Shown piece by piece: positions 16,835 through 34,966 of a stretch of 64,000 nucleotides of DNA. Position 1 is the first letter of the stretch. Every line of letters begins with the position of its first letter. The DNA comes from Candidatus Poribacteria bacterium (GTDB taxonomy: Bacteria > Poribacteria > WGA-4E > PCPOR2b). The position numbers and the translations under genes were made by a program. The DNA is taken from contig OZ242351.1 in NCBI GenBank assembly GCA_965208675.1, positions 800,001-864,000 of the forward strand. Direction: 5' to 3'. The notes under the pieces were generated by a model, which was not told where the DNA came from, made no database searches, and worked only from the letters and a program-made list of their open reading frames with translations.

Positions 16835-18877
16835 ATGAAAGCCAATGAAGAGAATTTACTGAAATTCTTGGATGGAACAAAACAGTTTATACTGCCAATT
16901 TATCAGCGTCGGTACAGTTGGACGAAAGAACAATGCAAACAGTTACTAGAAGACGTGTGTCGTATTGGGAAAAATGAGAATATCACGTCTCATTTCCTGG
17001 GATCAGTTGTTTCACGGGAAGAGGTTAGTACAAGGGTTCAACAGTTATGCGTCATTGACGGTCAACAGCGATTAACATCGGTTTCGCTATTGCTATCTGC
17101 GCTTGGCAGAGCCATTCAAGCAACGGGGGCGGATATTGGCATCGATCAAAACCGGATAAAAGGGTACTATCTATTCAATGAAAAAGAGGATGGAGATCTC
17201 CGTTACAAACAGATACTCACAACGCACGACAAGGAGACGCTGATTCAATTGTTGGAGGAGGGAGAATCTCCCGATAACTCTTCCCTGTTGACGAACAACT
17301 ACCAATTTTTTGAAGATAAGCTCAAGTCCGTCGATCTTAATGTGGTGTATAAAGGAATTGACAAGCTAATGATTGTCAGTATCGCCCTGGAATCTGCCTC
17401 TGACAATCCTCAGCTAATATACGAGAGTCTCAATTCCACTGGACTTAAACTTTCGCAAGCCGATTTAATTCGTAACTATGTGCTTATGGGACAGAAGTTC
17501 GATTTTCAAAAGAGCCTATATGAAATTTATTGGTATCCGATGGAGCAGCGTTTTGGAGAGGAGTACGCCAAACGATTTGACCTTTTTATAAGGGATTATC
17601 TGACTCTGAAGACTCGACAAATTCCGAATAAGGGTCAAGTTTACGAAAGTTTTAAACGGTATGTGGACGACAAGAGGAAGCCAGAAGACTTAAAGGCAGT
17701 CATCAAGGAAATCGTCGACTTCTCCGAACTCTATGTGCGCATAGTTTTACTCGAAGAACCTGACCGAGAACTTCATTCTTGCTTTGAGGACATTCATGCC
17801 CTTGGTGTAGAGGTCGTCATTCCGTATTTGCTTGGTATCTACGAGGATTATACTCTAGGAAAAATCGAGAAGGCGGAGGTTATCAGGATTCTCCAGCTTA
17901 TTGAGAGCTATGTCTTTCGTCGTGCGATATGTGACATTCCCACGAATATCTTGAATAAAACCTTCGCGGGACTTATTGGCCAAATCGACGGGGGAGAACA
18001 CTTGCAAAGCCTGAAAATTAGTTTCTCGAAAATGAGTGGGAGGAGCCTTTTCCCAAAAGATGATGATTTTCGGCAGGAATTCCAGACTAAAGACGTTTAT
18101 AACCTCCGAACTCGCAATTATTTACTACGCAAGCTAGAGAACTATGAACGCAAAGAACCGATTCGTGTTAAAGACTACACAATTGAGCATGTGATGCCGC
18201 AAAGTCTGTCTGAAGAATGGCAGGCGGAGTTGGGCGAAAACTGGAGAAACACTCATGAAAAATATCTTCACACGATTGGAAATCTCACTCTTACGGGATA
18301 CAATCCGGAGCTAAGTAACAGTACATTCCTAGAAAAACAGAACATGAATGGCGGTTTTCTCGACAGCCCGTTGCGCTTAAATGAAAGCCTTCGCGAGGTA
18401 GAGCGGTGGAATGAGTATGTTATTGTTAAACGAGCGGAGATTTTATCGGAAAAAGCACTTAACATCTGGCGTTACCACGGGATAACAAGAGTAATCGAAC
18501 CGTCTGGAAAAGAAAAATGGACAATAAATGACTTTTCTTATCTCACAGGTGACATGCTGGACCTTTTTGAACAGTTAAGGCACAGTATTGTGTGCTTGGC
18601 TGCTTCTATTGAAGAACAGATTAACAAACATTACATTGTTTTCAAGTCAAATAAGATCTTTGTAAGTATTACACCGCAAGCAAAACGCCTCCTATTGATC
18701 TTAAACTTGCCCTTCGCCGAAATCAGTGACCCGAAAAGACAGTGCAGAGACGTTGCACATATCGGAAAATTAGGCCATGGAGATGTTCAGGTCGGCATCG
18801 CTTCAAAAGACGAAATTGACTACATCATGTTCCTGATTCGCCAAGCGTACGAAAAACGAAAATCAGACAGGATGTGA
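16835..18877 (+). CDS. GmrSD-like DUF262 + DUF1524 (HNH) nuclease with C-terminal DUF5655-like domain
   Basis: PIYQRRYSW, IDGQQRLTS, YESLNSTG..LSQADLIRN, TIEHVMPQ..IGNLTL..YNPELSN; visibly lower GC. Confidence 0.9.
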   Translation: MKANEENLLKFLDGTKQFILPIYQRRYSWTKEQCKQLLEDVCRIGKNENITSHFLGSVVSREEVSTRVQQLCVIDGQQRLTSVSLLLSALGRAIQATGADIGIDQNRIKGYYLFNEKEDGDLRYKQILTTHDKETLIQLLEEGESPDNSSLLTNNYQFFEDKLKSVDLNVVYKGIDKLMIVSIALESASDNPQLIYESLNSTGLKLSQADLIRNYVLMGQKFDFQKSLYEIYWYPMEQRFGEEYAKRFDLFIRDYLTLKTRQIPNKGQVYESFKRYVDDKRKPEDLKAVIKEIVDFSELYVRIVLLEEPDRELHSCFEDIHALGVEVVIPYLLGIYEDYTLGKIEKAEVIRILQLIESYVFRRAICDIPTNILNKTFAGLIGQIDGGEHLQSLKISFSKMSGRSLFPKDDDFRQEFQTKDVYNLRTRNYLLRKLENYERKEPIRVKDYTIEHVMPQSLSEEWQAELGENWRNTHEKYLHTIGNLTLTGYNPELSNSTFLEKQNMNGGFLDSPLRLNESLREVERWNEYVIVKRAEILSEKALNIWRYHGITRVIEPSGKEKWTINDFSYLTGDMLDLFEQLRHSIVCLAASIEEQINKHYIVFKSNKIFVSITPQAKRLLLILNLPFAEISDPKRQCRDVAHIGKLGHGDVQVGIASKDEIDYIMFLIRQAYEKRKSDRM

Positions 18878-19092: not shown

Positions 19093-21846
19093 ATGACACT
19101 CCTCCAACCAATCTGGCTATTACTATGTATACCGCTTGGCGTATCGCTGTGGGTCTGGAAACCGAGTTCGCGGTTACTCTGGATATTGCGGTTCGTAATA
19201 TTATCTCTAGTCCTGTTAGCGATGTGCGGGCTTGCCGTGGAATTGCCGAGACGGGCCGGCACCATTGTCGTCATCGCGGACCGTAGCTTGTCGATGCCGC
19301 ACGGCAGCGAAGCTAGGCAGAAAGAAGCTATTGATTTAATACAGAGCGAGATGCCGAGCGATTCCCGCCTTGGCGTCGTCTCCTTTGGACGTGTGTCCGC
19401 GGTCGAACAGTCACCGCAAAGTGGAAAGTTCGCGGGTTTTGTCAACGAGGTGAACGGCGATGCGTCGGATCTAAACGCCGCAGTTGCGCAAGCCATTGCA
19501 CTCATACCGCGAGATTCGCCCGGCAGAGTGATTCTTCTGTCGGACGGCAGATGGACTAGTAACGACCCGATGGACACAGCAGCCCAAGCCGCAGCGCGAG
19601 GTATCCCCATTGATTACCGCGCCATGCGCCGGAACTCCGTAAACGATGTTGCCATCTCCCATGTAGATGCCCCCGATGTTGCAACACCCGGTGAATCGTT
19701 TATGATTGCCGCATGGATACACGCGCCGATTTCAGGAGAAATTTCATACGAGTTGTTGCGTAATAATCAACGCCTAACGGCTGGCAAGCGGAGCGTTCCA
19801 TCCGGGTTGAGCCGGCTGATTTACCGGGACAAAGCCGCGCAACCGGGTACTCATCAATACGCTGTGCGAATTGCGGGAAGCGAATCCGACCCGGTGCCAG
19901 AGAACAATACGGCAAAGGTCTTGATCGGTATTCAAGGGGCTCGCCCCATTCTTCATATCACAACCACTTCCAATACTGGGTTGGCGAATCTGCTGAAAGC
20001 GGGCGGTTTGGATGTAAAATCCGCACCGCCGTCGGCATACATCTGGTCGCTTGATGGACTTTCCGGATTTTCGGCAGTGCTGGTAGAGAATGTGTTCGCG
20101 GGTGAGATTGGCCTCCACGGCATGGAAAATCTTGCCGCTTGGGTCAGAGAGACTGGGTCGGGGTTCATGATGACCGGCGGCAAACACGCCTATGGACCGG
20201 GCGGCTATTTCAAATCTCCGCTCGAGCCAATCATGCCGCTCTCCATGGAGTTGAGACGCGAACATCGGAAGCTGTCGCTCGCGATAGTGGTGGCGATGGA
20301 CCGGTCCGGCAGTATGTCAATGCCGGTAGGCGGCGGCAGGACGAAAATAGATCTCGCAAATCTCGCGACAGCGGAAGTTTTTGACATGTTGTCACCGACG
20401 GATGAGTTTGGCGTAATTGCGGTCGACAGCGCCCCGCACATTATTGCCAACCTCGCGCCTGTTGACAAACTAGGAGGCACCCGGAGCAGAATCCTTCGAA
20501 TTGCTTCACAGGGCGGCGGTATCTTCGTCTACGAAGCACTTAGCGCCGCATCTTCAATGTTACTCCGCGCTCAAGCCGGTACGCGGCACATCATTCTGTT
20601 TGCGGATGCCGCCGATTCCGAGCAACCCGGACGCTATATAGAGTTGTTGGAGGAATGTCGAAAAGCTAACATTACTGTCAGCGTCGTAGGACTCGGAACA
20701 CCGTCCGATGTCGACGCTGGACTGCTGCGTGACATCGCCCGGCGCGGCGAGGGGCGTTGCTTTTTTACCGAAGATGCCGAAGAGTTGCCGCGTCTGTTCG
20801 CTCAGGACACGTTTGTGGTGGCGCGCAGCACGTTTGTTGACGAACCCACGCCGATTAAAACCACAGGCGGGATGGCTGCGTTGACCGGCGCTCAATATCA
20901 GATTCCGTCCTCTATCGGCGGGTACAACTTATGTTACATTCGTCCCGACGCAAACCTCGCTGCCGTGACCTTGGACGAATACAAGGCGCCTGTGGTAGCG
21001 GCGTGGCAGGCGGGTACTGGACGGGTGCTCTGCTATACAGGAGAAGCGGACGGGGCGCACACCGGCGCAATTGCCAATTGGAATGGTATTGGAAACCTGT
21101 TCACGAGCTTAGCACGCTGGACTGCTGGAGATTCTGGCAACCTCCCCGATGGGATGTTGCTCACACAAAAGGTCAGAAACGGCGTCGGCAAAATACAACT
21201 TCATCTCGACCCGGAACGAGAGGGTGAAATGTTCAGGGATCTACCTAGCGTGACTGTTCTACGCGGCGTAGTTGGAGAAAAGCCGACCGTGAGTAAAACA
21301 AAGTTGTCATGGACATCCGCCGACTCGCTCACTGCGGATGTTCCCATACACGGCGGTGAAACAGCGCTAGCGACCGTGGAGGTACCGGGGGCTGGAACTG
21401 TATCGCTGCCGCCGATTTGCCTGCCTTATTCACCGGAGTTTAAGCCCGCGCCGGACGAATCCGGTCTAGCGACATTGGAAAGGCTTGCCAAAACGTCCGA
21501 GGGAAAATCGAGAGTCAGCCTCGGTAGTATTTGGGACGATTTGCCGCGCAATCCCCGTCTAATAGGTCTCGCACCGTGGTTACTGATCGCGGCGCTTCTC
21601 CTTCTGCTGCTCGAAACACTCGAACGCCGTACAGGGTTGTTTTCCATGAAACGGACGTACAGAGTGGTAGAAGCAGTTTCGCAACGAATACCCCGAAAGG
21701 CGCGCCGCACATCGAGGACGATTTCATCGCCCGTAAAAACATCGCCGCACACTTCTCCAGAACCGGAGGGTAGCGTGGAGCGGGATGGAATGCTAGACGC
21801 CTTAACCCAAGCGCGAAGGCGTGCCAGCGGACGGACAGGGCAGTGA
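19093..21846 (+). CDS. vWA domain / glutamine amidotransferase-like membrane protein
   Basis: Two MIDAS-like motifs (DRSLSM, DRSGSM), LLSDG, GGKHAYGPGGY, N- and C-terminal TM helices. Confidence 0.88.
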   Translation: MTLLQPIWLLLCIPLGVSLWVWKPSSRLLWILRFVILSLVLLAMCGLAVELPRRAGTIVVIADRSLSMPHGSEARQKEAIDLIQSEMPSDSRLGVVSFGRVSAVEQSPQSGKFAGFVNEVNGDASDLNAAVAQAIALIPRDSPGRVILLSDGRWTSNDPMDTAAQAAARGIPIDYRAMRRNSVNDVAISHVDAPDVATPGESFMIAAWIHAPISGEISYELLRNNQRLTAGKRSVPSGLSRLIYRDKAAQPGTHQYAVRIAGSESDPVPENNTAKVLIGIQGARPILHITTTSNTGLANLLKAGGLDVKSAPPSAYIWSLDGLSGFSAVLVENVFAGEIGLHGMENLAAWVRETGSGFMMTGGKHAYGPGGYFKSPLEPIMPLSMELRREHRKLSLAIVVAMDRSGSMSMPVGGGRTKIDLANLATAEVFDMLSPTDEFGVIAVDSAPHIIANLAPVDKLGGTRSRILRIASQGGGIFVYEALSAASSMLLRAQAGTRHIILFADAADSEQPGRYIELLEECRKANITVSVVGLGTPSDVDAGLLRDIARRGEGRCFFTEDAEELPRLFAQDTFVVARSTFVDEPTPIKTTGGMAALTGAQYQIPSSIGGYNLCYIRPDANLAAVTLDEYKAPVVAAWQAGTGRVLCYTGEADGAHTGAIANWNGIGNLFTSLARWTAGDSGNLPDGMLLTQKVRNGVGKIQLHLDPEREGEMFRDLPSVTVLRGVVGEKPTVSKTKLSWTSADSLTADVPIHGGETALATVEVPGAGTVSLPPICLPYSPEFKPAPDESGLATLERLAKTSEGKSRVSLGSIWDDLPRNPRLIGLAPWLLIAALLLLLLETLERRTGLFSMKRTYRVVEAVSQRIPRKARRTSRTISSPVKTSPHTSPEPEGSVERDGMLDALTQARRRASGRTGQ

Positions 21847-21923
21847 ACGTAAAATTATTCAAATATCTTGAATTTTTCGATGCAGATGCGCTAGAATTAA
21901 CACCGACAACGGAGAGGTGTTTT

Positions 21924-22601
21924 ATGTTCATTCGATATCTAATTCTCTTCCTGCTATCGGTGGTAACTATGTACGGATGGGCGGATGTGGATGAATCATT
22001 ATCCACACAGCAGCAAGCCAACCGACCGACCTCCGTAACGCCTGCCTGAAGTGCCTGACCGGGCGAAGGCGCGCCGCTTCGGGGAAGCGGAATTCAGAAA
22101 AATTGGGCAATTTCATGGCGTTATATCCGCACCGAGTTGGACCGGCCTCGCTGGCGGACAACACTGAACTACGCGGTGGCAAATAGACTTCAACTCGGCG
22201 TCGAATTCAATCCCGCTGCTCGAGAGTTCGCACCGCTCGCCAACTTTTTTCTTTTCACTGAAACGAACGTCCGACCCGCGGCGGTTATAGGAACAAGTTC
22301 AGACCGTGTCGGGTCGCCGCCGAAGGAACAAGCATACTTTTTGACAATCGCCAAGCGTCTGCCGAGCGTGCCGATTTCGGCCTATGCAACCATCAACTAC
22401 TCTGAATGGGACGACGGGTTCAATTTCCCTTTCGGTGCTAGCATTGCCTTCGGTAAAGGCTTCACTTTACGCGGCATGTACGACGGAGATCTCCCCCACG
22501 TGATGTTGAACTACTACTATAAAGAGCTCAGCTTAAGTCTAATGTACATAAGTATCGATCAATCGCAAAGGCCGGGCATCGCGCTGTCCTCATCATTCTA
22601 A
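21924..22601 (+). CDS. Putative exported UxxU selenoprotein with beta-barrel-like C-terminal domain (reads through TGA 22047 and 22056)
   Basis: RBS GGAGAGG + ATG 21924, signal peptide, ...TPA-TGA-AGT-GCC-TGA-PGEG... continuing in frame into ORF 22137-22601; terminal Phe. Confidence 0.75.
22074..22090 (+). promoter_or_regulatory. Candidate bacterial SECIS hairpin
   Basis: CCGCTTC-GGG-GAAGCGG; G-rich apical loop about 22 nt after the second TGA and 31 nt after the first. Confidence 0.6.
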
Positions 22602-22632
22602 CCATTTTAATTGCCTGTTCACAACGTGTCAG

Positions 22633-23505
22633 ATGGACGAGACTTTCCGCCAATATCTCATAGACGGCGAACGCGCAGGGACGCAGTACACACTCACTGC
22701 ACCGCGCAATGTGCCCTTTGGGTTAGCCGGAAATCTAACAGGGAAGCGTCCGGGGAGTTCACTGGAGTTTATCGACCACCGGGAATACCAACCGGGCGAC
22801 GACCTGCGAAGAATTGACTGGGGCGGCTTCGCCCGAAGCGATAAATTGACCGTAAAGTTGTACCGGGACGAAGTCAACCCGCATCTAGACCTTGTCATTG
22901 ATGGATCGCGCTCGATGTCTCTCGAAAATTGCCCCAAAGCGCAAGCTACGCTTGGGTTAGCAGCAGTTTTTGCAACGGCGGCTGAGAATGTCGGTTATTC
23001 CCATTCCGCCTGGATCGCCGGGGATGGATATCGCAGGGTGGGAAACGGCGCAGACCGACCCTCAATTTGGCAGGGAATAGACTTTGAATATCGGGGCGAC
23101 CCTTCCACGTCTTTCGCCAAGCTCCCTCCGTCGTGGCGTCCCTATGGGATGCGCGTGTTACTTAGCGACCTGCTCTGGCCGAGCGACCCGACCGCGGCGC
23201 TGTCTCGATTCGGTGAACGCGCCGCCGCCGTCATTCTGGTCCAAATCTTATCGGAGGTAGACGTCAATCCCATCGAACGCGGCAACATTCGACTTGTCGA
23301 TTCAGAAACCGATGATGTGCAAGAAATATTCTTGGACGCGGTTGCTGAAAAGCGGTACCGCGCCGCATTCGCACACCATCAGGAGAACTGGAATCTCGCC
23401 GCGAAACGCGCTGGAATTGTGATGACAACAGTTATGGCTGAGCACATCCTGAGCGATTGGAGATTAGAAACGCTGGTTGGCGCTGAAGTGCTAAACATGG
23501 CATAG
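22633..23505 (+). CDS. DUF58 family protein (MoxR partner)
   Basis: GSSLEFIDHREYQPGDDLRRIDW, IDGSRSM, LLSDL. Confidence 0.92.
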   Translation: MDETFRQYLIDGERAGTQYTLTAPRNVPFGLAGNLTGKRPGSSLEFIDHREYQPGDDLRRIDWGGFARSDKLTVKLYRDEVNPHLDLVIDGSRSMSLENCPKAQATLGLAAVFATAAENVGYSHSAWIAGDGYRRVGNGADRPSIWQGIDFEYRGDPSTSFAKLPPSWRPYGMRVLLSDLLWPSDPTAALSRFGERAAAVILVQILSEVDVNPIERGNIRLVDSETDDVQEIFLDAVAEKRYRAAFAHHQENWNLAAKRAGIVMTTVMAEHILSDWRLETLVGAEVLNMA

Positions 23506-23805: not shown

Positions 23806-26696
23806 ATGCAACAATCCAAGTTAATAAATATTGTGTTATTAGTCGTGATTTTGACGGTAGCTGGGCTGATGGCGCCGGTACAATCCGCCGCCCAGACCAT
23901 GACCGATTCAGATACTCAATCCAGTGATGCATTCGACGATTCGGGCATGGATGCCGCGTCCGATACCGGGGATGCCATGGAGGACATGACCGATCACTCG
24001 TCAGAAATCATCGAACTGGAACAGGTATCCGTCACAGCCTCCCGACGCAGGGAAAAGGTGCTTGAAGCGCCGGCGTCAGTTGCCGTGGTGGGGTCTACCC
24101 AAATCAAAGATCGAGTCACGTCAACCCTGTCCGAACACGTAAAGTCTGTGCGCGGCGTAGACCTTGCTAAGACAGGATTGGGAGCGTCGCATGTCGTTGT
24201 GCGCGGCTTCAATAACGTCTTCTCAGGGACGCTGCTGTCGCTCGTTGACAACCGAATTGCCCGCGTTCCTTCGCTGCGTTTGAACGCTTACACGCTCATC
24301 CCGACTTCGAACGAGGATATTGAACAGATTGAAGTCGTCTCGGGCCCTGGCGCCGCGCTCTACGGCCCTAACAGCGCCAACGGCGTCATGCACATCCTTA
24401 CGAAATCTCCTTTCAACTCGCAAGGAACCACCGTCAGCATCGGCGGCGGCGAGCGGAGCGTGCTCCTGGGGTCGCTTCGGCACGCTGGCGTAATCAATGA
24501 AAATATCGGGTACAAGTTTTCTGCCAACGCATTCCGAGGTGATGACTGGGAAGAGGGACGCGCGGAAGCTGATTTAAACGGCGTAAAACCGCCCGAGTTT
24601 GATACCTATAGAGCTGGCGGTGACTTTCGCGTTGATTACCGCCCGACTAGCGACCTAACGACGATTGTTGCAAGTGGTTTTACCCAAACGACGGGTTTGG
24701 AAATGACTGGCATCGGCGCCGGGCAAGCCAAGAACTGGACTTACGGCTACGTCCAAGGCCGCCTCATCTACAGAGACCTTTTCGCACAAGCCTTTTGGAA
24801 CCGCAGCGACGCCGGGGATACCTACACGCTACGGGCAGGCGACCCAATTATCGACAATTCCGATTTGTATGTGGGACAGATTCAACACGGATACAGCTTG
24901 GGTGAGAATCAGCGGTTCACGTATGGCTTGGATTTATTGCTGACCCGCCCGGATACTGAAGGCTCAATCAACGGACGCAACGAGGACAATGACAACGTCA
25001 ACGAGGTCGGCGCTTACTTGCAGTCGGAAACTAAAATTCTTCCCGAGTTAAAGTTCATCGCCGCCGCGCGTGTTGATGACCACAACCACCTCAATGACCT
25101 CGTGCTTTCGCCGCGTGCGGCGCTCGCCCTTCAGCCAAACGATAACCACAACATCAGACTGACCTACAACCGCGCCTTCAGCACACCGTCTTCCTCGAAC
25201 CTATTCCTTGATGTCGTGTCGATTCCTGACGCATTCGGCTTAGGCGCCGCATTCCAACCCGCGTTGGGATTCAGCCCGGCAATCGATATTCGCGCGCAGG
25301 GGGTAAGCAGTGAAACCGGATTTACCTTCAAAAGGAGTGCGGACGGGCGGCCGGAATTTCGATCGCCATTCTCAGCGGCTGCAAATCTACCTGCCGACCA
25401 ATACATTCCGCTTGACGACCCTGTTTTTACCAACGTCATGTGGAGTGTCGGCAGATCCGCAATCTTGAGTGAAGCACAGCCCATGTTTGAAGCCGGGTTA
25501 AAGCAGGCGTTCACTCCTGAAACCCTGCCGCAATTACTGCAAAGCCAGTCGCCGGCGCAGATTGAGGGCATCGTGTCAACGCTGCCGGCAGAAGTGACGC
25601 AGCTTCTACCGCCGGCATTTCAACAGCCAGGTGCTATCGCGGCCTTACCTCCCGAAATCTTACAGCCGCTCATTCCCCAAGTGCTTGCGTCGTTGCCGGC
25701 GCCAGTGGTTGAAGGACTCACTGCTTCTCTCATCGCCGACCTGTCTGCCGGTTTTGCGAACGCCGTACCGGCACAGGTTTCAGGCGTGAAAAACTCCCTG
25801 CTTGCGCTAAATCCGGAAACAGAGGAATTTGAGCCGATTGCGGACGTAAACGACGTTGACCCCATTACTCCAACGATTACACAAACGTATGAAATGGGTT
25901 ACAAAGGGATTCTGATGGATAAAATCGCGTTCTCCGCTGACGTGTATCACACAAGAATTAACGATTTTATCGGTCCCTTGGTGGTTGAAACGCCCAACGT
26001 ATTCTTGGATGCAAATACATTAGGTGCTTCCATCGCCCAACAACTCACCGAGACGTTGAACGATCCGAAAAACGCATTGCTCAACCAAGCGTTGCTCGCA
26101 TTCGACTCGCCGGCACAAGGTGGAAATGGCGATGGTTCAGCCGTCGATGAGTTGACGAAGTTGTTCGTCGCGGGCACCGATAACAACGGCGCCGCGTTCA
26201 TTCCCTTGGCACCGTGTCCCCCGATCAGGCGGGCGATCCGAACGCAGTGATGCTTACCTATCGTAACTACGGCGACATCTCGCTTAACGGAACCGATCTG
26301 AGCCTAACGTATTATCTCAATCACAGCTTGAGTGTGACTGGAAATTACTCGTTCGTCAGCAAGGACCTGTTTGAGACCGATATCCGCAACATCGCCCTAA
26401 ACGCGCCAAAGAATAAGTTCGGCGCAAATGTCCAATACCTCAACCCCGATTTAGGTCTTGGCGCTGGCGTCGCGATGCGCTATGTCGCTGGATTTCCGAT
26501 GAACTCCGGTGTCTATATCGGTGACGTTGAGTCGTATTACACCATTGATGTTAGTGCGGGATACGATTTACCGTTCGGTCCAAAACCGCGCCTGTCGCTG
26601 ACCGTACAAAACCTTCTGGACAAAATGCACCAGCAATTTGTCGGCGCCCCGTACATTGGCCGCCTGTCAATGTTGCGCTTGACACAGACATTTTAA
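23806..26696 (+). pseudogene. TonB-dependent receptor split by a 1-nt frameshift near 26206 (error or pseudogene)
   Basis: TonB box/plug VSVTASRR, IEQIEVVSGPGAALYG; ORFs 23806-26250 and 26214-26696 join at IP-x-GTVSP; C-terminal NLLD..RLTQTF. Confidence 0.85.
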
Positions 26697-26868
26697 CAAT
26701 AGGCTTAACTGAGTCGAGATTTTGGGGTGACCGGGTTAGAATTGGCAAATTCGATAATAAATTTCCCTTTAGTTTGCCAAGAATTTGCTCCAATTTTCCT
26801 GTTGTTGGAATAGCATGGGGATTTCCCAAAATTTTGTTGCAGCCGAATTTTACCTTCAACCCATGCAC

Positions 26869-26931
26869 AGAAACCGAGTTTATTTCAATCCTGAAGCTAC
26901 GAGAACTTCATCGTGTATAAACTCGGTTTCT
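26869..26931. repeat. Perfect 15-bp inverted repeat in intergenic DNA
   Basis: AGAAACCGAGTTTAT / ATAAACTCGGTTTCT. Confidence 0.65.
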
Positions 26932-27112
26932 CTCAAATTTTTGCAGGACGCTGCTCCTCCTTAAAACGCGTTGTCGTTCAACTGTCGGCAGTCGGATGTC
27001 GTCCTATATTAGTGCGACTTTTACGGCTAGAGTCTGCCCGCCTTGCACCGTGGCTCCGTCAACGTTGAAGAATTAAAATGCCGCAAAAATCAATTGCAAA
27101 AGGAGGCAGCCC

Positions 27113-30100
27113 TTGAAAAAGTTTGTCCTGATTGTACTCGCCGCCCTAGCCTTTCCACAAGTCAACTCTACGCAAAGCACCACTGACCACTCCGCGCTCG
27201 AACCCATACAATCTGCACTACAGTCAAAGCGTTTCAAGGATGCAGTACACCTCATTGATACTGCATTGACGACGGCAGAGAATCAACGAGACTATCTGCT
27301 TTATCTCAAGGGTCTCGCGCTGTTCTATAACGGTGATTACAGGGGCGCAATTGAGACGTGCGTCCAATTCATTCAGGATCACCCTGATTCCACGTGGTTG
27401 AGGAAAGCAACGTTCCTTCAAGCCCAGTGTCATCTCAAACTGAAGGAATTTAAACAGGCTGAAGCAATCTACAGTAAAGAGGTTAGTCGGCTTCTCTCAT
27501 CAAGACGCAAATCGGAAATTGCCCAAATTTACATTCAGCTTGCCGAAACCTTCGCGCACAAACCCGATGACGCAGACCTCGACGCCCGCCAGCCGAACTA
27601 TCAGAAAGCGTATGAACTGTATCAAAAAGTTTTGGCGTTAGAGGTTGACCGTAACCTTCGCAAAACGGCTACCTTCCAACTCGGACGCATGATGCAGCTG
27701 CAGGAGAAATACGCACAAGCCGTTGTTGACTACGAAGCCTACCTTACACAGTTTGATCCCAATTTTCAGCGCCCGGCCGCTTTGCCAATGCCTTCAAAGA
27801 AGAGCAAAACGCCCGATGGCCGCCGCTATCAGGCTCATTACCATCTAGCGGAATGCCAGATAGCCTTGAATCAGCACCTACAGGCGCGATTGACGCTTGA
27901 GAACATATTAAAACCGGCCGAATTTGAAACGAAAGAACTACAGCCTCTCATTAAAAACGCTCGCTTCCTGTTGACCCGGACCTACCACTTCCCTAACCCC
28001 AAGTCAAACAAAGAGTTGGAGCTAGGCGTACAATCTGCCCGAAGGTTTCAGGAGCAGTTTCCGCGTGACCCGCGCTCAATGACACTAGCGCACGAAATCG
28101 GTGAGGCATATCGGATGCGGCATCGAAGCGAGGAAGCGCTCGCTGCGTACCAAGACGTTATCGACGGAAAGGGCTTCAAAGTAACCCAAAAGAAGCGGCA
28201 ATTTTCAAATCCCAACAATCAAGATTACCATCACCTCCGTATGTCCTCCGCATTTCAAATCGGGAGTATTCTGTTCAAACAGCGAAAGTATAACAATGCA
28301 ATTGAAGCGTGGAATAGATACATTCGAGAGTTTCCCAATGGACCTGAATGGACCGACGCTCAACAGGGGATTGTAAAAGCCGAATTTCAAATTGCTGTAT
28401 CGCTCCTTGCCGGCGAAAAATACGAAGAAGCTGTGCGTGCGTTCGATACCTTCCAAGCAAAACACCCGCTGGATGAACGCGTGCGGCAGATAATGTTTAT
28501 TTATGGCCAAATTCACGCTCACAAATCCGAACATCAGCTCGCAATTACCGAGTGGGAAAAGCTCGTGAGCAAATTCCCGAACACGGAAGAATCGTCACTC
28601 GCGCTCTTTCGCATAGGGCAGACGTACGAACTACCATTGGGCGATCTTGAAAACGCGCTAGAATCTTACCGAAGGCTAACCTGGGGAAGCTGGCACGCTC
28701 GTGCGCAAGAGGTCATACGCCAGATGACAGAGAAGCACCTCCAACTTGTCACACCGCGCACGTTCCGTACGAATGAACCGACACACGTGCAAGTGTCTCT
28801 TCGCAATATCGAATCCCTCACGGTGAATCTCTACAAACTCAATCTTGAAGCCTACTGGCGCAAGATGTACGATGTGAACGGCGTGGAAGATCTCGATCTC
28901 GACTTGATCGAGCCGAACAAGACTTGGCAATACAGCGTTCCAAACTACGAGAAGTACAAGAGCTTGGAGTGCAATATCAACATTCCGTTTGCCGGTCCCG
29001 GCGTTTACGCGGTGCAACTCGGCGATGAGTCGCTGGAATCCACGACACTTCTTATCCGCAGCGATATCGAGACTATCACCAAGACATCCCGCCGCGAGGT
29101 ACTTGTATTCGTGCAAAATATGCTGAATGGCGAAGTGGTCGCCGATGCTAAGGTGCTTGTAAGCGACGGCTCAAGCGTAATCTTCGAAGGACGCACCGGA
29201 GCGGACGGTGTACTCCATGCAACTGAACCTGACATTTCGGATTTCGCATTGGTAGAGAACCAACTTAAGGATGCGAGTCAGGTGGCGGTATTCGTCGTCA
29301 AGGGTGGACACGTGGCCGCAGACGGGTTAGATATTTCAGGGCTTGGCTTCAGTAAAGGCTTGACGCCGCGCGGCTATATCTACACCGACCGCCCCGCATA
29401 CCGACCGGGAGAACGCGTTTCAATGCGCGGCATTATCCGTGATGTCAGCAATGGCGCGTACGTGGTACCGGACGGTGCACCATGTAACGTCTCAGTGATC
29501 GATGCACGCGGACGCCAAATCCATAAAGAGGAGGTCAAACTCTCTCAGTTTGGCGGGTTCGTCACGCAGTTGCAGCTTGACAATGCCGCCGCTGTCGGCG
29601 AATACCGCATCCGTGTGGCAGAATTCGACCCAGATGCAAAGCTAGAAATCTCAAGCCACACATTCACAGGTAACTTTCAAGTTCAGCGATTTCAACTCGA
29701 AAAGGTACAGTTGCTGCTCGATTTTCCACGCAGTGTCTACTTCCGCGGTGAACAGGTGAATGCTACCTTTACGGCACGATACTATTACGGCCAGCCGGTG
29801 AAGCACGCAAAAATTCAATACAAACTTCCAGATGGCCGGAGCTATACGGAAACCGCTGATAATCAGGGAAAACTGCAGGTCAATTTCGATACGACATCTA
29901 TGCAACCCGGCAAACCGCTTCATTTCAGCGGGACAGTTCCGGGTGAGAATGCCAGCGTTAAAACCTCCGTGACGCTTGCACATCTCGGATATTCAATTTC
30001 TGTGCAACCTGACGCTAAACTTGTTCTCTCCGGTGAACCGTTCGACGTAACATTACATACAAAAGGCGCTGATGGTCATCCGGTTGGCGAAAAATTAACC

Positions 30101-33100
30101 GTCAAAGTAGTACAAAAGCAGAGCAGCGGTCCCATTTCGCCGGTACTGTCGCAGATTCCTTGGATAAAAAAGGAAGGTGTGTCCGGTTCTGCCGAGATAA
30201 TCATCCAAGAACACAACCTGCAGACAGATTCCCAGACGGGCGCCGGTACAATTCAGTTGACGCTAAACACTGGAGGTGTTTTTACAGTCCGTGCCCATGG
30301 AGTAGATCGGTTCGGACAACCCGTCGTCGGCTCAAGCCGTGTCACCATATCCGATGAGGATGATGACACCAAACTCCGCATTTTCGCCGATCGTTCGAAA
30401 ACACAGGTCGGCGCTTCCGAAAGGCTTCGCATTCACTCGCGATTGAAACCCGTTCACACACTAATCACGTATGAAGGTGAAATTGTTATTGGATATGAAG
30501 TACGCTTGCTGAAAACGGGAAAAAATCGGCTTCAGTTCACAATCGGGCACCAACACTTCCCGGATTTTTACATTGGTGTGGCGGCAATTGACGATCGAAT
30601 CCTACACACCGCAAGGAAACGCTTCACCGTCGAAAGGCAACTAAATTTATCCGTGACTTGGATGGATAGCAATCCGATTCACGGCTCCAATCAGACTCTT
30701 CCCGGCTATCTGCCCGGTGACGATGCGAAAATCCAAGTCCGCGCTACCGATCAACTTGGTCAGCCGGTCAAGGCTGAATTTTCTCTCGCGCTCGTGGACG
30801 AAGCCCTGTTCGCCGTCTACAAAGATGGCGTCATGAACATTAACGATTTCTTCCAGAAAGGACTCCGACGCCATGCATCCATGCGCACTGCTTCAAGCTG
30901 CGCCTTTCTTTACGCTCCCGACACACGTCACGTCATTAAGGAAATACTTGCAGAGGAACAACGGCTTGAAAAAACCTTCGTCAGTGCTGCGAAGATGAGC
31001 GGCGCGGTTATTGTCGAGGATGACGATGACAATGTACGGAAGCGCATGCGCATGCGCAGACGCGTTCGCAAGCCAGTAATTAAAGATCTTCGCCCAGCAC
31101 TTGCTGAACCGAAAGTGCGGGAAGAATCCACCTACGCCGGTTTTTGGATTGGAACCTTCATCACGGACGATGCGGGTTTGGCAACGTTAACCGTCCCGAT
31201 GCCAGAAAAGACGACGAAATGGCGGCTGACTGCGCGTGGATCCACCGTTGATACACTCGTTGGACAAGTCAGTGTGAACGCCATTACGCGGAAAGATTTC
31301 TTCCTCGACGTTCGCACCCCGGCATTTGTTACCGAAGGTGATGAGATTCGATTAGGTATCCGACTCCATAATATCACCGACTATAGTGGAGAAGCCGACG
31401 TTCAACTCAAGCTGTCAATTGGCGAATCGCAGCCGGTGTACCGAGACCACAAAAGAACTACGATTACTGCCAAAGACACGGCAGAGCTAATCTTCGACAG
31501 GTTCACCATTCCCGCTGGAAACCTGCACGCTGACCCACATCCAAGCCAACTCACCATTGAAGCGACGGCAACTGCGGGTTCATTGAGTGATGGAGTTCGG
31601 CGCACAATTCCGATTCGTCCGTGGGGGCTGGAATACACCGATACCCAGAGCGGAACGGCGGCTAGCAACAGAACCGTTTACGTCCAACTCTCGTCTGATT
31701 TACACTACACGCAGAAGGGACTCACTATCAATATTGGTCCGAGTGTCTCGCGGCTAATCTATGATCTCGCTCTCAACCACTATCCCCGACCATACCAGAG
31801 TGGGTCTATCAGACGTCCCGTCATCATACCCAGTGATTCTGGCAGCGACCTACTTGCTGTGGCGTCCGCTCTCGACTATCAAAAAAAGGTGGGCGACAAT
31901 CCAACCGATAATCGCAGCTTGCTCGCGCGCGCACGGACGCTCGTCAGCCGACTCGTAACAACACAAAATGACGACGGCGGGTGGAGTCTGGTTCGAGGCA
32001 CGGCGGCGAGCAACGACCGTGTAACAGCCCGCAACCTGTGGGCGCTGACAGCGACACGCGACAGTGGCGTGGCAGTTGACGACCAAGCCATTGCCAACGC
32101 CGCGAACTACCTCAAGACAGCTTTCGCTCAGACCAACAAAAACGGCGAAGACACAAAGGCGTCAATCCTTTATTCCCTCTCAACGCTAGATGACCTGGAT
32201 TTCGCGCGCGCAAACCGCCTGTATCGGCGCCGGAATCAGATGAGCAATGTTTCGTTGGCGTACGCTGCACTGGTCTTTGTCAATCTCAACCGCTTAGAAA
32301 TTGCAGACGAGATACTTGAAATATTGGAACGCCGCGGCCTGTTGCCCGATGAAGAGAGAAACTCGACGATTGTCAGCTCGCACACAGGCCACGGTCAAGT
32401 CGAGACTGTCGCTTTGGCGCTGTTAAGCATGCAAGCAGTCCGCCCAAGTTCAGCGTGGGTAAACGATGCGGTGGAATACCTAATTGGTCAGCGCCGTTAC
32501 TACGGCTATTCGGCGTACGCCGCTAAAGGTGCTGTCGTCGCCGCACTAGCAACCTACTATCAAACGACGCAACATGCGGCAGATGACTACAGACTAAGCC
32601 TGCTCGTGAACGGTGAACCGCTCGAAACAATTGCAGTTCAGAGGGATTCCGTTAACCGTCTAATTCACGTGCCAACCGCGCAAATTCTCGACGGACAGAA
32701 CCGCGTCGAGATGCAAATCGAAGGGCAGGGGACTTATACGTACCTTGTTACAATCAGCGGGTTTTCTCCAGACGTGCCGAACTGGGTCGGCGCTGAACCG
32801 GAGACTAACGGCAGTTTGAAAAACACACGAATTAACCGCCGCTACCTTCACCCACCGCTTGAATATCGGGGCAAACCCATCGGCGCGCGGAGCACGACAG
32901 GGATTACTCAATTGGAAGCCGGCGCAAAGATGGAAGTCTCTGTCAACATCGTGTATGGCATTGGCGCACTCACGCCCGACCACCATTCTAAGGGCAGGTA
33001 CGTTGTTGTAGATGAATTTTTCCCCGCCGGGACAACGGTCGTTGACGGTACAGTTAATGGCGATTTTCAACACTACGATGTCGGAGACGGTGTAATCCGT

Positions 33101-34966
33101 TTCTACTATGGGCCCCGCGCTACCTTTAGGGACTACAGCTATCAGCTAGTCAGCTATGCGCCCGGCGATTACCGCGTCCCCCCAACTGTAATGCGCGGCG
33201 TTCAAAGCCGCGATAATATGCGGCTGGGACCGGCGGCTTCGCTTACCGTGCTAGGACCAAGCGAAAAATCCAAAGACACCTATGAGATGAATAACGCAGA
33301 AAACTTTGCACTAGGGAAAGCGTATTTCGACGACGCAAATTATGGCGATGCGCGTCCATTGCTTGAAACGCTATCCAAAGACAGCCCAAAATTCAACGCG
33401 AAAGAGGCCGCGAAGATGCTTTTGTGGATTTACACGACAGAAGAACATTACAGTGCGAGGCACGTCGTCCAAGCATTTGAGGGTTCTCGCGACCACTATC
33501 CAGATCTCGAAATCCCTATTGACAGGATTCAGGTAGTCAGCTCAGCATACCGTGATATTGGAGAATTTGAACGCGCAACCATGGTTCATCGCTCCGCAAT
33601 CGAATCCAGCTTTGCTCGGGACACGAATGTTAGCACAGCTCTTCAGGACAATGGTGAATTCTTACGTTCGATCGAATTCATTGAAGATTTGTGGCGTGAA
33701 TACCCCGACACCCCTACTACCATTCACGCTTACTTCGCAATCGCACAGTCTCTCTATGCGAGTAAAGATGCCGCGGATGGAAGCGCCAAACCAGCGCCCA
33801 AAATTCAAACCCTTAATCGAACGGTAAAGATACTCACTCAGTTCCTGACGCTGTACCCTACGAATCCGCTCGCAGACGACGCCGCGTTTTCGCTCGCGAA
33901 CGCATATATGGACCTGGAGGATTTTCAGAATGTGGTGAAACTTTGCCGCTTGAATCAGGCGTACCGCCCGGACAGTGTGCTGCTGAGCAGTTTTCAATAC
34001 CTGAAAGCGCTCGGGCTCTTTGCACTGAACGAATATGATGAAGCCATTAAGGCAGCGACGCTCGTGGCATCAAGTGAAAGCGAAGACTGTGATTTTGCGC
34101 GGTACATCGTCGGGCAGATTTACCATGCGCAGGGCAAAACGAAACAGGCGATTGACTGGTACAGGCGAGTCAGGCAAATCTACCCCGATGCGGATGAATC
34201 CATCGCTCATTTTGAAGCACAGCAGATTTCCATTCCCGAAGTCACAATTAAGCGCCCGAATTTTGACGTGGTGTTGACGTTAAAGCATCGAAACATCTTA
34301 TCGGCAGAAATTCAGGTATACCGAATTGATTTGATGAATCTCTTTCTGCGTGAAAAAGATCTCAGCCGTGTAACTCAAGTACATTTAGCGGGTATAGAAC
34401 CGGAAATCAGCCAAACCGTTAATTTTGGTGACGCTAAAGATTTCATAGAGGCAACCCGAGACATTTCGTTACCCATTACAGACGAGGGGGCATACCTCGT
34501 CATCTGCCGCGGCGGCAATCTGTCCGCGAGCGGTTTAATTTTGATTACGCCGTTGGAGATTGAGGTACAGGAGGGCGCGGAGAGCGGCCGTGTACGTGTC
34601 GTTGTGCAGGACGCACTTTCAGGCAAATATCAACCGAGAGTCCATGTCAAAGCGGTAGGCTCCACAGGCGGGCGATTTATCTCAGGCGAAACAGATTTCC
34701 GCGGCATTTTCATCGCCGACGGTTTACACGGTACGACAACTGTCATCGCGCGTGACGGTATGAATCGTTATGCGTTCCATCGCGGCAATTTGTGGCTTGG
34801 CGCCCCACCCTCCGATTCAGAATCGCCCCCCAGCCCAAGGGCAGCAACGGACTATCGTCAGCATCTTGATCGCAAGAATCAGGAAATCCAAGCGGCAAAC
34901 GTTGAAGGGTTTGACCGTTTGCGTCGAGCACCCCGCGACGGAGTCCAGCTCCAGCACGCTTATTAA
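27113..34966 (+). CDS. Giant TPR-containing alpha-2-macroglobulin family protein
   Basis: Signal peptide; N- and C-terminal TPR arrays; MG2 YIYTDRPAYRPGE, SLALVDEAL, MPEKTTKWRLTARG, QNDDGGW; TTG start after AAGGAGG. Confidence 0.9.
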   Translation: MKKFVLIVLAALAFPQVNSTQSTTDHSALEPIQSALQSKRFKDAVHLIDTALTTAENQRDYLLYLKGLALFYNGDYRGAIETCVQFIQDHPDSTWLRKATFLQAQCHLKLKEFKQAEAIYSKEVSRLLSSRRKSEIAQIYIQLAETFAHKPDDADLDARQPNYQKAYELYQKVLALEVDRNLRKTATFQLGRMMQLQEKYAQAVVDYEAYLTQFDPNFQRPAALPMPSKKSKTPDGRRYQAHYHLAECQIALNQHLQARLTLENILKPAEFETKELQPLIKNARFLLTRTYHFPNPKSNKELELGVQSARRFQEQFPRDPRSMTLAHEIGEAYRMRHRSEEALAAYQDVIDGKGFKVTQKKRQFSNPNNQDYHHLRMSSAFQIGSILFKQRKYNNAIEAWNRYIREFPNGPEWTDAQQGIVKAEFQIAVSLLAGEKYEEAVRAFDTFQAKHPLDERVRQIMFIYGQIHAHKSEHQLAITEWEKLVSKFPNTEESSLALFRIGQTYELPLGDLENALESYRRLTWGSWHARAQEVIRQMTEKHLQLVTPRTFRTNEPTHVQVSLRNIESLTVNLYKLNLEAYWRKMYDVNGVEDLDLDLIEPNKTWQYSVPNYEKYKSLECNINIPFAGPGVYAVQLGDESLESTTLLIRSDIETITKTSRREVLVFVQNMLNGEVVADAKVLVSDGSSVIFEGRTGADGVLHATEPDISDFALVENQLKDASQVAVFVVKGGHVAADGLDISGLGFSKGLTPRGYIYTDRPAYRPGERVSMRGIIRDVSNGAYVVPDGAPCNVSVIDARGRQIHKEEVKLSQFGGFVTQLQLDNAAAVGEYRIRVAEFDPDAKLEISSHTFTGNFQVQRFQLEKVQLLLDFPRSVYFRGEQVNATFTARYYYGQPVKHAKIQYKLPDGRSYTETADNQGKLQVNFDTTSMQPGKPLHFSGTVPGENASVKTSVTLAHLGYSISVQPDAKLVLSGEPFDVTLHTKGADGHPVGEKLTVKVVQKQSSGPISPVLSQIPWIKKEGVSGSAEIIIQEHNLQTDSQTGAGTIQLTLNTGGVFTVRAHGVDRFGQPVVGSSRVTISDEDDDTKLRIFADRSKTQVGASERLRIHSRLKPVHTLITYEGEIVIGYEVRLLKTGKNRLQFTIGHQHFPDFYIGVAAIDDRILHTARKRFTVERQLNLSVTWMDSNPIHGSNQTLPGYLPGDDAKIQVRATDQLGQPVKAEFSLALVDEALFAVYKDGVMNINDFFQKGLRRHASMRTASSCAFLYAPDTRHVIKEILAEEQRLEKTFVSAAKMSGAVIVEDDDDNVRKRMRMRRRVRKPVIKDLRPALAEPKVREESTYAGFWIGTFITDDAGLATLTVPMPEKTTKWRLTARGSTVDTLVGQVSVNAITRKDFFLDVRTPAFVTEGDEIRLGIRLHNITDYSGEADVQLKLSIGESQPVYRDHKRTTITAKDTAELIFDRFTIPAGNLHADPHPSQLTIEATATAGSLSDGVRRTIPIRPWGLEYTDTQSGTAASNRTVYVQLSSDLHYTQKGLTINIGPSVSRLIYDLALNHYPRPYQSGSIRRPVIIPSDSGSDLLAVASALDYQKKVGDNPTDNRSLLARARTLVSRLVTTQNDDGGWSLVRGTAASNDRVTARNLWALTATRDSGVAVDDQAIANAANYLKTAFAQTNKNGEDTKASILYSLSTLDDLDFARANRLYRRRNQMSNVSLAYAALVFVNLNRLEIADEILEILERRGLLPDEERNSTIVSSHTGHGQVETVALALLSMQAVRPSSAWVNDAVEYLIGQRRYYGYSAYAAKGAVVAALATYYQTTQHAADDYRLSLLVNGEPLETIAVQRDSVNRLIHVPTAQILDGQNRVEMQIEGQGTYTYLVTISGFSPDVPNWVGAEPETNGSLKNTRINRRYLHPPLEYRGKPIGARSTTGITQLEAGAKMEVSVNIVYGIGALTPDHHSKGRYVVVDEFFPAGTTVVDGTVNGDFQHYDVGDGVIRFYYGPRATFRDYSYQLVSYAPGDYRVPPTVMRGVQSRDNMRLGPAASLTVLGPSEKSKDTYEMNNAENFALGKAYFDDANYGDARPLLETLSKDSPKFNAKEAAKMLLWIYTTEEHYSARHVVQAFEGSRDHYPDLEIPIDRIQVVSSAYRDIGEFERATMVHRSAIESSFARDTNVSTALQDNGEFLRSIEFIEDLWREYPDTPTTIHAYFAIAQSLYASKDAADGSAKPAPKIQTLNRTVKILTQFLTLYPTNPLADDAAFSLANAYMDLEDFQNVVKLCRLNQAYRPDSVLLSSFQYLKALGLFALNEYDEAIKAATLVASSESEDCDFARYIVGQIYHAQGKTKQAIDWYRRVRQIYPDADESIAHFEAQQISIPEVTIKRPNFDVVLTLKHRNILSAEIQVYRIDLMNLFLREKDLSRVTQVHLAGIEPEISQTVNFGDAKDFIEATRDISLPITDEGAYLVICRGGNLSASGLILITPLEIEVQEGAESGRVRVVVQDALSGKYQPRVHVKAVGSTGGRFISGETDFRGIFIADGLHGTTTVIARDGMNRYAFHRGNLWLGAPPSDSESPPSPRAATDYRQHLDRKNQEIQAANVEGFDRLRRAPRDGVQLQHAY

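Follow-up and report, generated by a model that had tools for sequence, protein, structure and literature searches.

A candidate UxxU selenoprotein gene, predicted to encode an exported outer-membrane beta-barrel, in a genome of Candidatus Poribacteria

The window analysed here is a 64,000-nucleotide (nt) stretch of a Candidatus Poribacteria bacterium genome (assembly GCA_965208675.1, contig OZ242351.1, positions 800,001 to 864,000, forward strand), and coordinates are those of this window unless stated otherwise. A list of open reading frames (ORFs) made with translation table 11 breaks the region around 21924-22601 in two (21843-22049 and 22137-22601). The question raised by this locus is whether these are separate or broken genes, or one gene in which two in-frame TGA codons are decoded as selenocysteine (Sec, U). 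On sequence evidence, the interval 21924-22601 most probably forms one gene for an exported selenoprotein, and it is highly probable that the product is a real UxxU selenoprotein with two Sec residues. This reading is based on the conservation of the frame, of both UGAs and of a hairpin across at least two phyla, on the full Sec machinery of the host and on the existence of distant Cys/Cys relatives.

A first-pass annotation of the window had proposed that a single frame was split in the ORF track by TGA-AGT-GCC-TGA, and this is confirmed on the sequence. Indeed, one frame runs from ATG 21924 to TAA 22599-22601, its only internal stops are TGA 22047-22049 and TGA 22056-22058, separated by the codons AGT GCC, and read-through gives a product of 225 amino acids (aa) with Sec at U42 and U45. 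This protein is composed, in order, of MFIRYLILFLLSVVTMYGWA, a 21-residue linker, TPA-U-S-A-U-PGEGAPLRGSGIQ and about 165 residues with an SSSF end. The ribosome-binding site and start codon assigned to it, and the lack of such a site for the downstream ORF, were also recovered: GGAGAGG lies 6 nt 5' of ATG 21924, GGAG(A/G)-type sites are found 5' of the aligned ATG in the same-genus loci L022-L024, and there is no GGAGG-like site upstream of TTG 22137, where the downstream ORF starts. The features of the gene, all on the + strand, are as follows.

21911..21917, +, Shine-Dalgarno-like GGAGAGG, read in the sequence, with a 6-nt spacer to the ATG
21924..22601, +, whole coding sequence of the putative UxxU selenoprotein, 225 aa plus TAA (frame; two TGAs in 35/35 motif-spanning homologues)
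21924..21983, +, predicted signal peptide, aa 1-20 (MFIRYLILFLLSVVTMYGWA) (basic and hydrophobic N-termini in relatives; helix at residues 2-17 in the first structural model)
21984..22046, +, linker, aa 21-41, with the conserved end RPTS..TP[A/T] (alignments; low predicted local distance difference test, pLDDT, in both structural models)
22047..22049, +, putative first Sec codon UGA, U42 (always TGA in homologues that span the motif; Cys in CxxC forms)
22056..22058, +, putative second Sec codon UGA, U45 (always TGA in homologues that span the motif; Cys in CxxC forms)
22074..22090, +, hairpin of the selenocysteine insertion sequence (SECIS) type, 7-bp stem, GGG apical loop (-9.1 kcal/mol; covariation; published constraints on bacterial SECIS, bSECIS)
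22104..22598, +, predicted 12-stranded outer-membrane beta-barrel domain, aa 61-225, Phe end (AlphaFold model, structural matches, Foldseek)

An N-terminal signal peptide had been annotated as well. It is the sole one and is located upstream of the TGAs, hydrophobic leaders are also encoded in relatives, and cleavage probably occurs after GWA. Read-through therefore appears to be required for a functional product, because an outer-membrane barrel needs a signal peptide and because gene callers place the internal start at various positions, many of which cut the first strand.

Are the two TGAs maintained in other organisms? When 61 related genomes were searched with the read-through protein, stops being translated through, 35 motif-spanning matches were obtained in four families and all of them (35/35) have exactly two TGAs; their identity is 51-99% (99% for the host genome itself, 51-91% for the 34 relatives), and the other rows represent fragments at contig ends or hits at chance level. 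Thirty relative loci were fetched, in which the motif context is ...PT-U-S-[A/G]-U-PGEGAPLRGSGI..., a hydrophobic leader preceded by an ATG or GTG start is encoded upstream in 29/30 (the exception, L046, has a GTG only) and the protein always ends in ...F. Metagenomes were scanned with a DNA pattern permitting TGA, TGC or TGT at both sites, which gave at least 120 matching stretches, and 80 loci were examined. Among the matches listed, 80/80 are TGA+TGA, with SG (50), VG (22), SA (5) or TG, GG and AG (1 each) between the Sec codons; 66 of these 80 loci are complete downstream, and 57 of the 66 have a terminal Phe. In a second phylum, labelled Acidobacteriota (L078), a profile search detected the gene in 26 of 301 genomes, one of them flagged as unpublished, and every motif-spanning match has two TGAs. 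A contig of the same species from an independent study spans 21885-22650 with 12 listed differences, none of which falls in the TGAs or the hairpin, so that the independent assembly keeps both TGAs. The claim that this arrangement exceeds chance is made because of this conservation across homologues, and not from single-sequence statistics.

The 7-bp hairpin with a GGG loop that had been noted downstream of the TGAs (CCGCTTC-GGG-GAAGCGG, 22074-22090) is present, conserved and covarying. Alone, it folds at -9.1 kcal/mol, a value equalled by 2/200 shuffles, and its loop is 31 nt from the first UGA and 22 nt from the second. In a covariation test on 109 aligned sequences (108 distinct; 756 stem cells), the 7-bp stem is paired in 97.5% of the cells, against 29.6-68.7% when the partner is slid by 1-3 columns. 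Two-sided changes occur at 3/7 pairs in 50 cells (G-C to A-U, U-A to C-G and C-G to G-C); the observed paired share, cell count or covariation score was matched by none of 500 shuffles, and the number of covarying pairs by 68 of 500. Restricting the alignment to the 37 sequences taken from genomes gives pairing in 99.6% of 259 cells and covariation at 2/7 pairs. The stem changes are situated at third codon positions (CCG/CCA, CTT/CTC, GGA/GGG, AGC/AGT) and move together, and flanking third positions vary freely. In a divergent subfamily, 9/12 loci keep an identical loop register with the stem GCGGUCC...GGAC[U/C]GC, in which positions 1 and 4 are flipped, and in loci L091 and L142 a stem of 7-8 bp is rebuilt from other letters and other amino acids.

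In the available part of PMC13188914, bSECIS elements are delimited by a loop of 3-9 nt whose first two positions contain G, a stem of 4-16 bp, a distance of 16-37 nt from the UGA and a folding energy of -7.5 kcal/mol or lower; the hairpin falls within every one of these limits, with its GGG loop, 7-bp stem, distances of 31 and 22 nt and -9.1 kcal/mol. A further case is provided by the host selD gene (G000:C1:4649539-4650462, outside the window), which itself has one in-frame TGA (KCAG-U-ASKLD) and in which a hairpin, GGAUCC-GGG-GGAUCU, begins 11 nt past the UGA and displays the same C-GGG-G apex as the UxxU gene. A genome-wide scan for C-GGG-G hairpins after in-frame TGAs yielded selD and two doubtful sites (the UxxU gene being excluded by the ORF filter), and these few sites show that the host genome does not use the GGG triloop as a general mark. 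A candidate lower stem (GAA/TTC) and a GUGCCU/AGGCGC helix can also be drawn in the window; they are not kept in relatives, as judged by eye and uncounted, and were rejected. Since the 22074-22090 hairpin is the sole conserved one, a single SECIS for both UGAs, which had been put forward as a possibility, is the simplest reading: the hairpin is within the published distance of both codons and may serve both. One SECIS decoding two UGAs has been raised as a possibility for UXXU hydrogenases in the available text of PMC13582414.

The host is equipped to insert Sec. Its genome, a single contig of 4.89 Mb, encodes all four components that had been suggested for verification: selA, selB, selD and a tRNA-Sec (selC) were all detected above curated cut-offs, the tRNA-Sec directly adjoins selB, and selA belongs to the same cluster. 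In the whole genome, ARAGORN predicted 48 tRNAs, of which a single one is tRNA-SeC(UCA); its acceptor stem has 8 bp and its discriminator base is G. The set also contains one ordinary 75-nt tRNA-Cys(GCA). More broadly, selA is present in 60 of the 61 related genomes and in both non-Poribacteria genomes first found to carry the UxxU gene. The first-pass annotation had stated that TGA is a normal stop elsewhere in the window, without code reassignment, and this holds: the upstream gene, which encodes a 917-aa VWA protein, terminates in TGA (21844-21846), and the true stops of the 66 complete metagenome homologues, among the matches listed, are TGA (31), TAA (30) and TAG (5). Since the UxxU homologues use TGA both as Sec and as stop, the genetic code is not reassigned.

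More distant homologues were obtained by a profile search against 1.84 billion representative sequences, in which 208 hits had E values up to 1e-3. The majority of them start just past the TGAs and thus correspond to truncated gene calls. Several representatives span the motif with PTCAGCAGEAR..., both Cys being aligned to U42 and U45 at 25-28% identity. The CxxC forms aligned at these positions are P0036, P0038, P0055, P0087, P0035, P0029 and P0030, and the PTCAGCAG motif was read by eye, not by alignment, in P0042, P0082, P0033 and P0060. The expected pattern of TGA or Cys at both sites was thus encountered in the form of TGA in all motif-spanning homologues and CxxC in distant forms. Some members have no Cys at the motif, for example the motif-less protein of the cultured planctomycete Rohdeia mirabilis (WP_145191266.1). 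The stretch GAPLRGSG, 3' of the motif, is near-invariant in Sec forms and variable in Cys forms, as would be expected if it were constrained as RNA.

Among the matches examined, all named public entries of Sec forms, including Poribacteria and KSB1 records, are truncated 'hypothetical proteins' of 130-166 aa. Their start positions vary, falling inside the first barrel strand or shortly ahead of it, and in many cases strand 1 is cut. In five entries (P0083, P0159, P0160, P0162 and P0191) both TGAs are read as W (APTW..WPGEG, e.g. APTWSGWPGEG); evidently, some annotation pipelines applied a TGA=Trp code to these contigs, and selenoproteins are hidden in such entries as 'Trp' proteins. Another entry, P0012 (ENA cluster, 209 aa), which is known from its protein record alone, reads PACVGWPGEGQF (PACVGWPGEG); if its W is a TGA, it is a mixed C-x-x-U member and the only hint of a Cys/Sec intermediate.

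Two other ways of reading the TGAs have to be weighed against selenocysteine. In the first, the UGAs are recoded to a different residue: a tRNA(ReC)-like tRNA that depends on the SECIS might insert Cys, or an altered genetic code might yield Trp or some other amino acid. According to the available part of PMC13582414, tRNA(ReC)-like genes are enriched in genomes with UXXU hydrogenases, where the UGAs are maybe read as Cys, and some public gene calls do give W at these codons. This is nevertheless very improbable here, as the W readings are choices of gene callers and not data, no second Sec-like tRNA and no other UCA tRNA occur among the 48 ARAGORN tRNAs alongside the ordinary tRNA-Cys(GCA), and the Rfam tRNA-Sec model gives one hit above its cut-off, the next-ranked hits fetched (L014-L020) being Ser, Leu, Trp and Cys tRNAs. 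The single Sec tRNA has a G discriminator and lies beside selB and selA, and TGA terminates the upstream gene and 31 of the 66 complete homologues listed. Still more improbable is that the TGAs are true stops, the locus being a broken gene or a leader ORF of 41 codons with a distinct barrel gene behind it, as the truncated public annotations would have it. More than 100 independent sequences, belonging to two phyla or more, keep the TGAs, the frame across them, the stretch PGEGAPLRGSG that links the second TGA to the barrel and the upstream signal peptide, which is not expected of a pseudogene, and the TGAs are confirmed by an independent assembly. Homologues starting downstream of the TGAs had been named as a possible counter-indication; no conserved downstream start was found, use of the listed internal starts would shorten or eliminate strand 1, and a barrel started internally would have no signal peptide.

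Several observations do weigh against decoding as two Sec residues by one SECIS. No Cys is found at either Sec position among close relatives (0/80 listed loci), which is unusual for selenoprotein families, so that the Sec/Cys pairing rests on remote homologues only, and these are distant (25-28% identity). Three of the 12 loci of the divergent subfamily (L211, L212 and L214) do not fit the stem and have only a weaker, shifted hairpin. Locus L124 (354-428, metagenome contig) is without hairpin; there, the family sequence is lost right after CCACTCC and the frame stops 12 codons past the first TGA, so that it is either a disrupted copy or a chimeric contig. Folding support is limited to the 17-nt hairpin, longer stretches being no better than shuffles (z -0.46 and z -0.94), and an Rfam scan of 21800-22700 (E up to 10) returned three chance-level matches and no SECIS family. 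Lastly, one SECIS serving UGAs 9 nt apart is only a raised possibility in the literature checked (available part of PMC13582414).

What kind of protein would be produced by read-through? The beta-barrel-like domain suspected in the first-pass annotation is well supported by an AlphaFold model built on a 69-row alignment (pLDDT 84.6, predicted TM score 0.80), which contains twelve barrel strands at mature residues 41-204 with block means of about 87-94; a first model, built on 22 rows, was poorer (pLDDT 70.1). Structural comparison consisted of an all-against-all structural search, plus Foldseek. In the former, the matches were FapF (Z 16.4), KdgM (4pr7; Z 16.0, root-mean-square deviation (rmsd) 2.5 over 154 residues), a COG4313 channel (Z 15.8), autotransporter barrels (Z 13.4-14.3), NanC (2wjr; Z 13.9), LpxR (Z 13.6) and PcoB (7pge_B; Z 9.2, rmsd 4.3). 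Foldseek concurs with a barrel of the KdgM/NanC type (TM score 0.66, normalised to the target). The C-terminal 165 residues are thus modelled as a 12-stranded outer-membrane barrel, KdgM/FapF-like. A likeness to the PcoB-type copper channel was considered and rejected, as it is weak (Z 9.2) and no better than that to many unrelated barrels. The read-through protein (P0001) has no match in Pfam (E up to 0.1) or in NCBIfam release 20.0 (E up to 1). The absence of a thioredoxin fold, as proposed initially, was also verified: there is no such Pfam hit at E up to 0.1, the model consists of a linker followed by the 12-stranded barrel, and outer-membrane barrels head the structural matches.

Hints on function come from modules that are fused to the motif in relatives. 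In CxxC forms, YHS domains above the Pfam cut-off are fused in P0029, P0033, P0035 and P0060, P0030 being just under it; the Cys forms from Armatimonadota metagenome-assembled genomes have one or two YHS domains 5' of the motif, and secondary matches comprise a TRASH domain and the metal-binding domain found in cation ATPases. Ten Sec loci of the second phylum were examined. In six of them (L208, L211-L215) a Redoxin/AhpC-TSA domain with WCxPC is encoded in frame (E 1e-15 to 1e-21), this WCxPC being its own and distinct from UxxU, with no signal peptide between the Redoxin domain and the UxxU motif; four of these six (L208, L213-L215) also have His-rich linkers. Weak YHS matches were detected in the Sec forms L206, L207 and L209, and the remaining locus has no added module. 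These fused modules place the motif on the periplasmic side. The largest forms, L212:1501-2991 (-) and L211:1501-3195 (-), contain an extra Cys-rich segment, GQVVCC..CWAEADR...SCVEGG, in the interval from the signal peptide to the Redoxin domain, for which no Pfam match was found. Word-index searches for longer fused forms found none, which is weak evidence; the fusions came from profile and genome searches.

As regards mechanism, SelB with Sec-tRNA(Sec) would bind the single hairpin at 22074-22090 and recode both UGAs, 31 and 22 nt from the loop. The protein would then be exported via its N-terminal signal peptide and the barrel would insert in the outer membrane, the PT-U-S-A-U-PGEG segment remaining periplasmic or within the barrel lumen. 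The two selenols could form a redox-sensitive soft-metal site, with copper as a first guess, that is kept reduced and passes metal to or from the barrel channel. The first-pass annotation had suggested a redox or metal-binding role, and both terms are retained here as a prediction from sequence. It is tentatively proposed that UxxU is a redox-maintained soft-metal site at an outer-membrane channel, since relatives fuse YHS/TRASH domains, His-rich linkers or a TlpA-like WCxPC domain right before the motif; these fusions make metal handling at the outer membrane a subject open to experiment. More speculatively, PT-U-x-x-U-PGEG might fold into the barrel lumen and act as a selenolate/diselenide switch, both binding a soft metal and controlling its passage across the outer membrane, and recharged by a TlpA-like periplasmic reductase. 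If true, it would provide the first example of an outer-membrane channel with a gate or metal site based on selenium, and the gene would be a natural case of one minimal SECIS hairpin recoding two UGAs 9 nt apart.

The same gene and decoding are also compatible with UxxU as a diselenide/selenol redox centre and not a metal site, an assignment that seems rather unlikely. In this case, a TlpA-like periplasmic reductase, fused in some relatives and separate here, would feed electrons to the motif, which would either relay them to a substrate located inside the barrel or past it, or gate the channel by plugging and unplugging. The Redoxin/AhpC-TSA domain with WCxPC fused directly upstream in 6/10 second-phylum loci speaks for such a role, as does the fact that known bacterial UxxU/UxxC families are mostly thiol oxidoreductases, and the FapF, COG4313 and autotransporter matches reach the N-terminal segment of the model (model starts 14-25), which could be compatible with a lumen position. 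On the other hand, the motif is in a low-confidence linker and not in a thioredoxin fold, metal modules (YHS/TRASH, His-rich linkers) are fused to it in other relatives, and no substrate or partner gene is conserved nearby. A peptide diselenide is also hard to reduce, which counts against this role. The soft-metal site remains the preferred reading, and five points weigh against it in turn: the motif region of the model has a pLDDT of only about 60; the window protein has no YHS, His-rich or Redoxin module; the YHS matches of Sec forms are sub-threshold (19-21.5 versus a Pfam cut-off of 30.3 bits); a pure redox role would explain the Redoxin fusions just as well; and there is no conserved gene neighbour among Poribacteria genera or 82 other loci, where only gene-overlapping ORFs recur.

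How does this protein compare with known systems? SelL is a eukaryotic diselenide UxxU protein. The description of UxxU as rare stands, but the motif is not unprecedented in bacteria, where UxxU families are known. In the bacterial Prx-like thiol:disulfide oxidoreductase UxxC/UxxU family (PF00578), U-x-x-U likewise matches C-x-x-C and both codons lie within 12 nt; in this family and in SelL the motif is inside a thioredoxin or peroxiredoxin fold, whereas in the window protein it is in a linker before an outer-membrane barrel. UxxU is also shared with a family in which it is proposed as a soft-metal site; the window protein differs from it in fold and cellular location, and has no NCBIfam (E up to 1) or HMA Pfam match. 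PT-U-x-x-U (PT-C-A-G-C in Cys forms) presumably resembles M-T-C-x-x-C, which is a lead only. The KdgM/NanC, FapF and COG4313 proteins share the 12-stranded barrel fold with the window protein, which ends in a C-terminal Phe, but their identity to it is 8-15% (12-15% for KdgM/NanC), without Pfam match, they have no Sec or CxxC tether, and the likeness in fold is no proof of function.

TlpA reportedly acts on the copper chaperone ScoI, as a periplasmic reductase keeping a metal-binding Cys pair reduced. By analogy, the TlpA-like WCxPC domain next to a Cys/Sec pair in the cell envelope could point to reduction before metal binding; the difference is that in some relatives the domain and the pair are fused to a barrel, and that the window protein has no such domain. 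Predicted Sec-containing outer-membrane barrels include a GSU2204/MtrB-PioB-like family (NF041027) and the TonB-dependent receptor FCYXU (NF049945) (PMC13188914); both are large barrels with a single Sec, unlike the window protein, in which two Sec residues would lie outside the barrel and which has no NCBIfam match. According to the available part of PMC13582414, the UXXU Group 4 [NiFeSe] hydrogenases likewise have a pair of UGAs at a distance of three codons with a single predicted SECIS downstream, and occur in phyla that overlap with those of the UxxU barrel family (Poribacteria, Acidobacteriota, Armatimonadota, KSB1). They are cytoplasmic or membrane-associated Ni enzymes mixing CXXU, UXXC and UXXU, whereas UxxU is invariant in the barrel subfamily (80/80 among the matches listed).

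None of the NCBIfam selenoprotein families (NF041115, UxxU metal-binding; NF041384, YHS; NF041027; NF049945; and others) matches the read-through protein, and NF041384 is touched only by YHS-fused Cys relatives, far below its cut-off. Table 1 of PMC13188914 (May 2026) lists 119 prokaryotic selenoprotein families, with UxxU in the Prx-like family, NF041115 and an FmdB-like family, and no small UxxU barrel is among these 119; nothing similar is mentioned in the available parts of PMC9312934, PMC2398784, PMC12013277 and PMC13326102. A full-text literature search retrieved no paper on a UxxU barrel family, although supplementary tables might list it. The UxxU barrel is thus very probably the founding member of a widespread family (Poribacteria, the phylum labelled Acidobacteriota, records labelled KSB1 and many metagenome contigs) that is absent from the selenoprotein inventories checked. 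Sec insertion follows a known type of mechanism; novelty resides in the architecture and in how strictly both Sec residues are retained. The predicted location of Sec is unusual, namely in the cell envelope, on an outer-membrane barrel and outside any thioredoxin fold. As public annotation truncates the family to 'hypothetical protein', the selenoproteomes of these groups are undercounted. Retention of Sec at both sites in all 80 listed loci argues that selenium does something that sulfur cannot. The gene is, moreover, a compact natural one, suited to testing one bacterial SECIS against two adjacent UGAs, a question raised in 2026 for UXXU hydrogenases.

The genes surrounding the UxxU gene differ between genera and include PhyH, Gfo/Idh/MocA, sigma-70, DMFA2-like and other genes. 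In the genus of the window only (19093-23505; L051-L053), it is located between the gene for the 917-aa VWA protein and one for a DUF58 protein. VWA and DUF58 families usually travel together. The neighbours in the window are unrelated: an ABC transporter, a phosphorylase, GmrSD, VWA and DUF58 proteins, a TonB-dependent receptor and a giant A2M/TPR protein. In brief, a GmrSD-type restriction endonuclease (680 aa) is encoded at 16835-18877, upstream of the VWA gene, and a 2617-aa protein with alpha-2-macroglobulin and TPR domains is encoded downstream, at 27113-34966. The adjacent TonB-dependent receptor (approximately 23806-26960) has a frame change near 26190-26250: the table-11 ORF has an atypical tail and stops at 26250, and the typical receptor C-terminus (...LRLTQTF) is encoded in a different frame, as far as about 26960. 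No Sec codon is involved, and the receptor gene is either a frameshifted pseudogene or the product of an assembly error.

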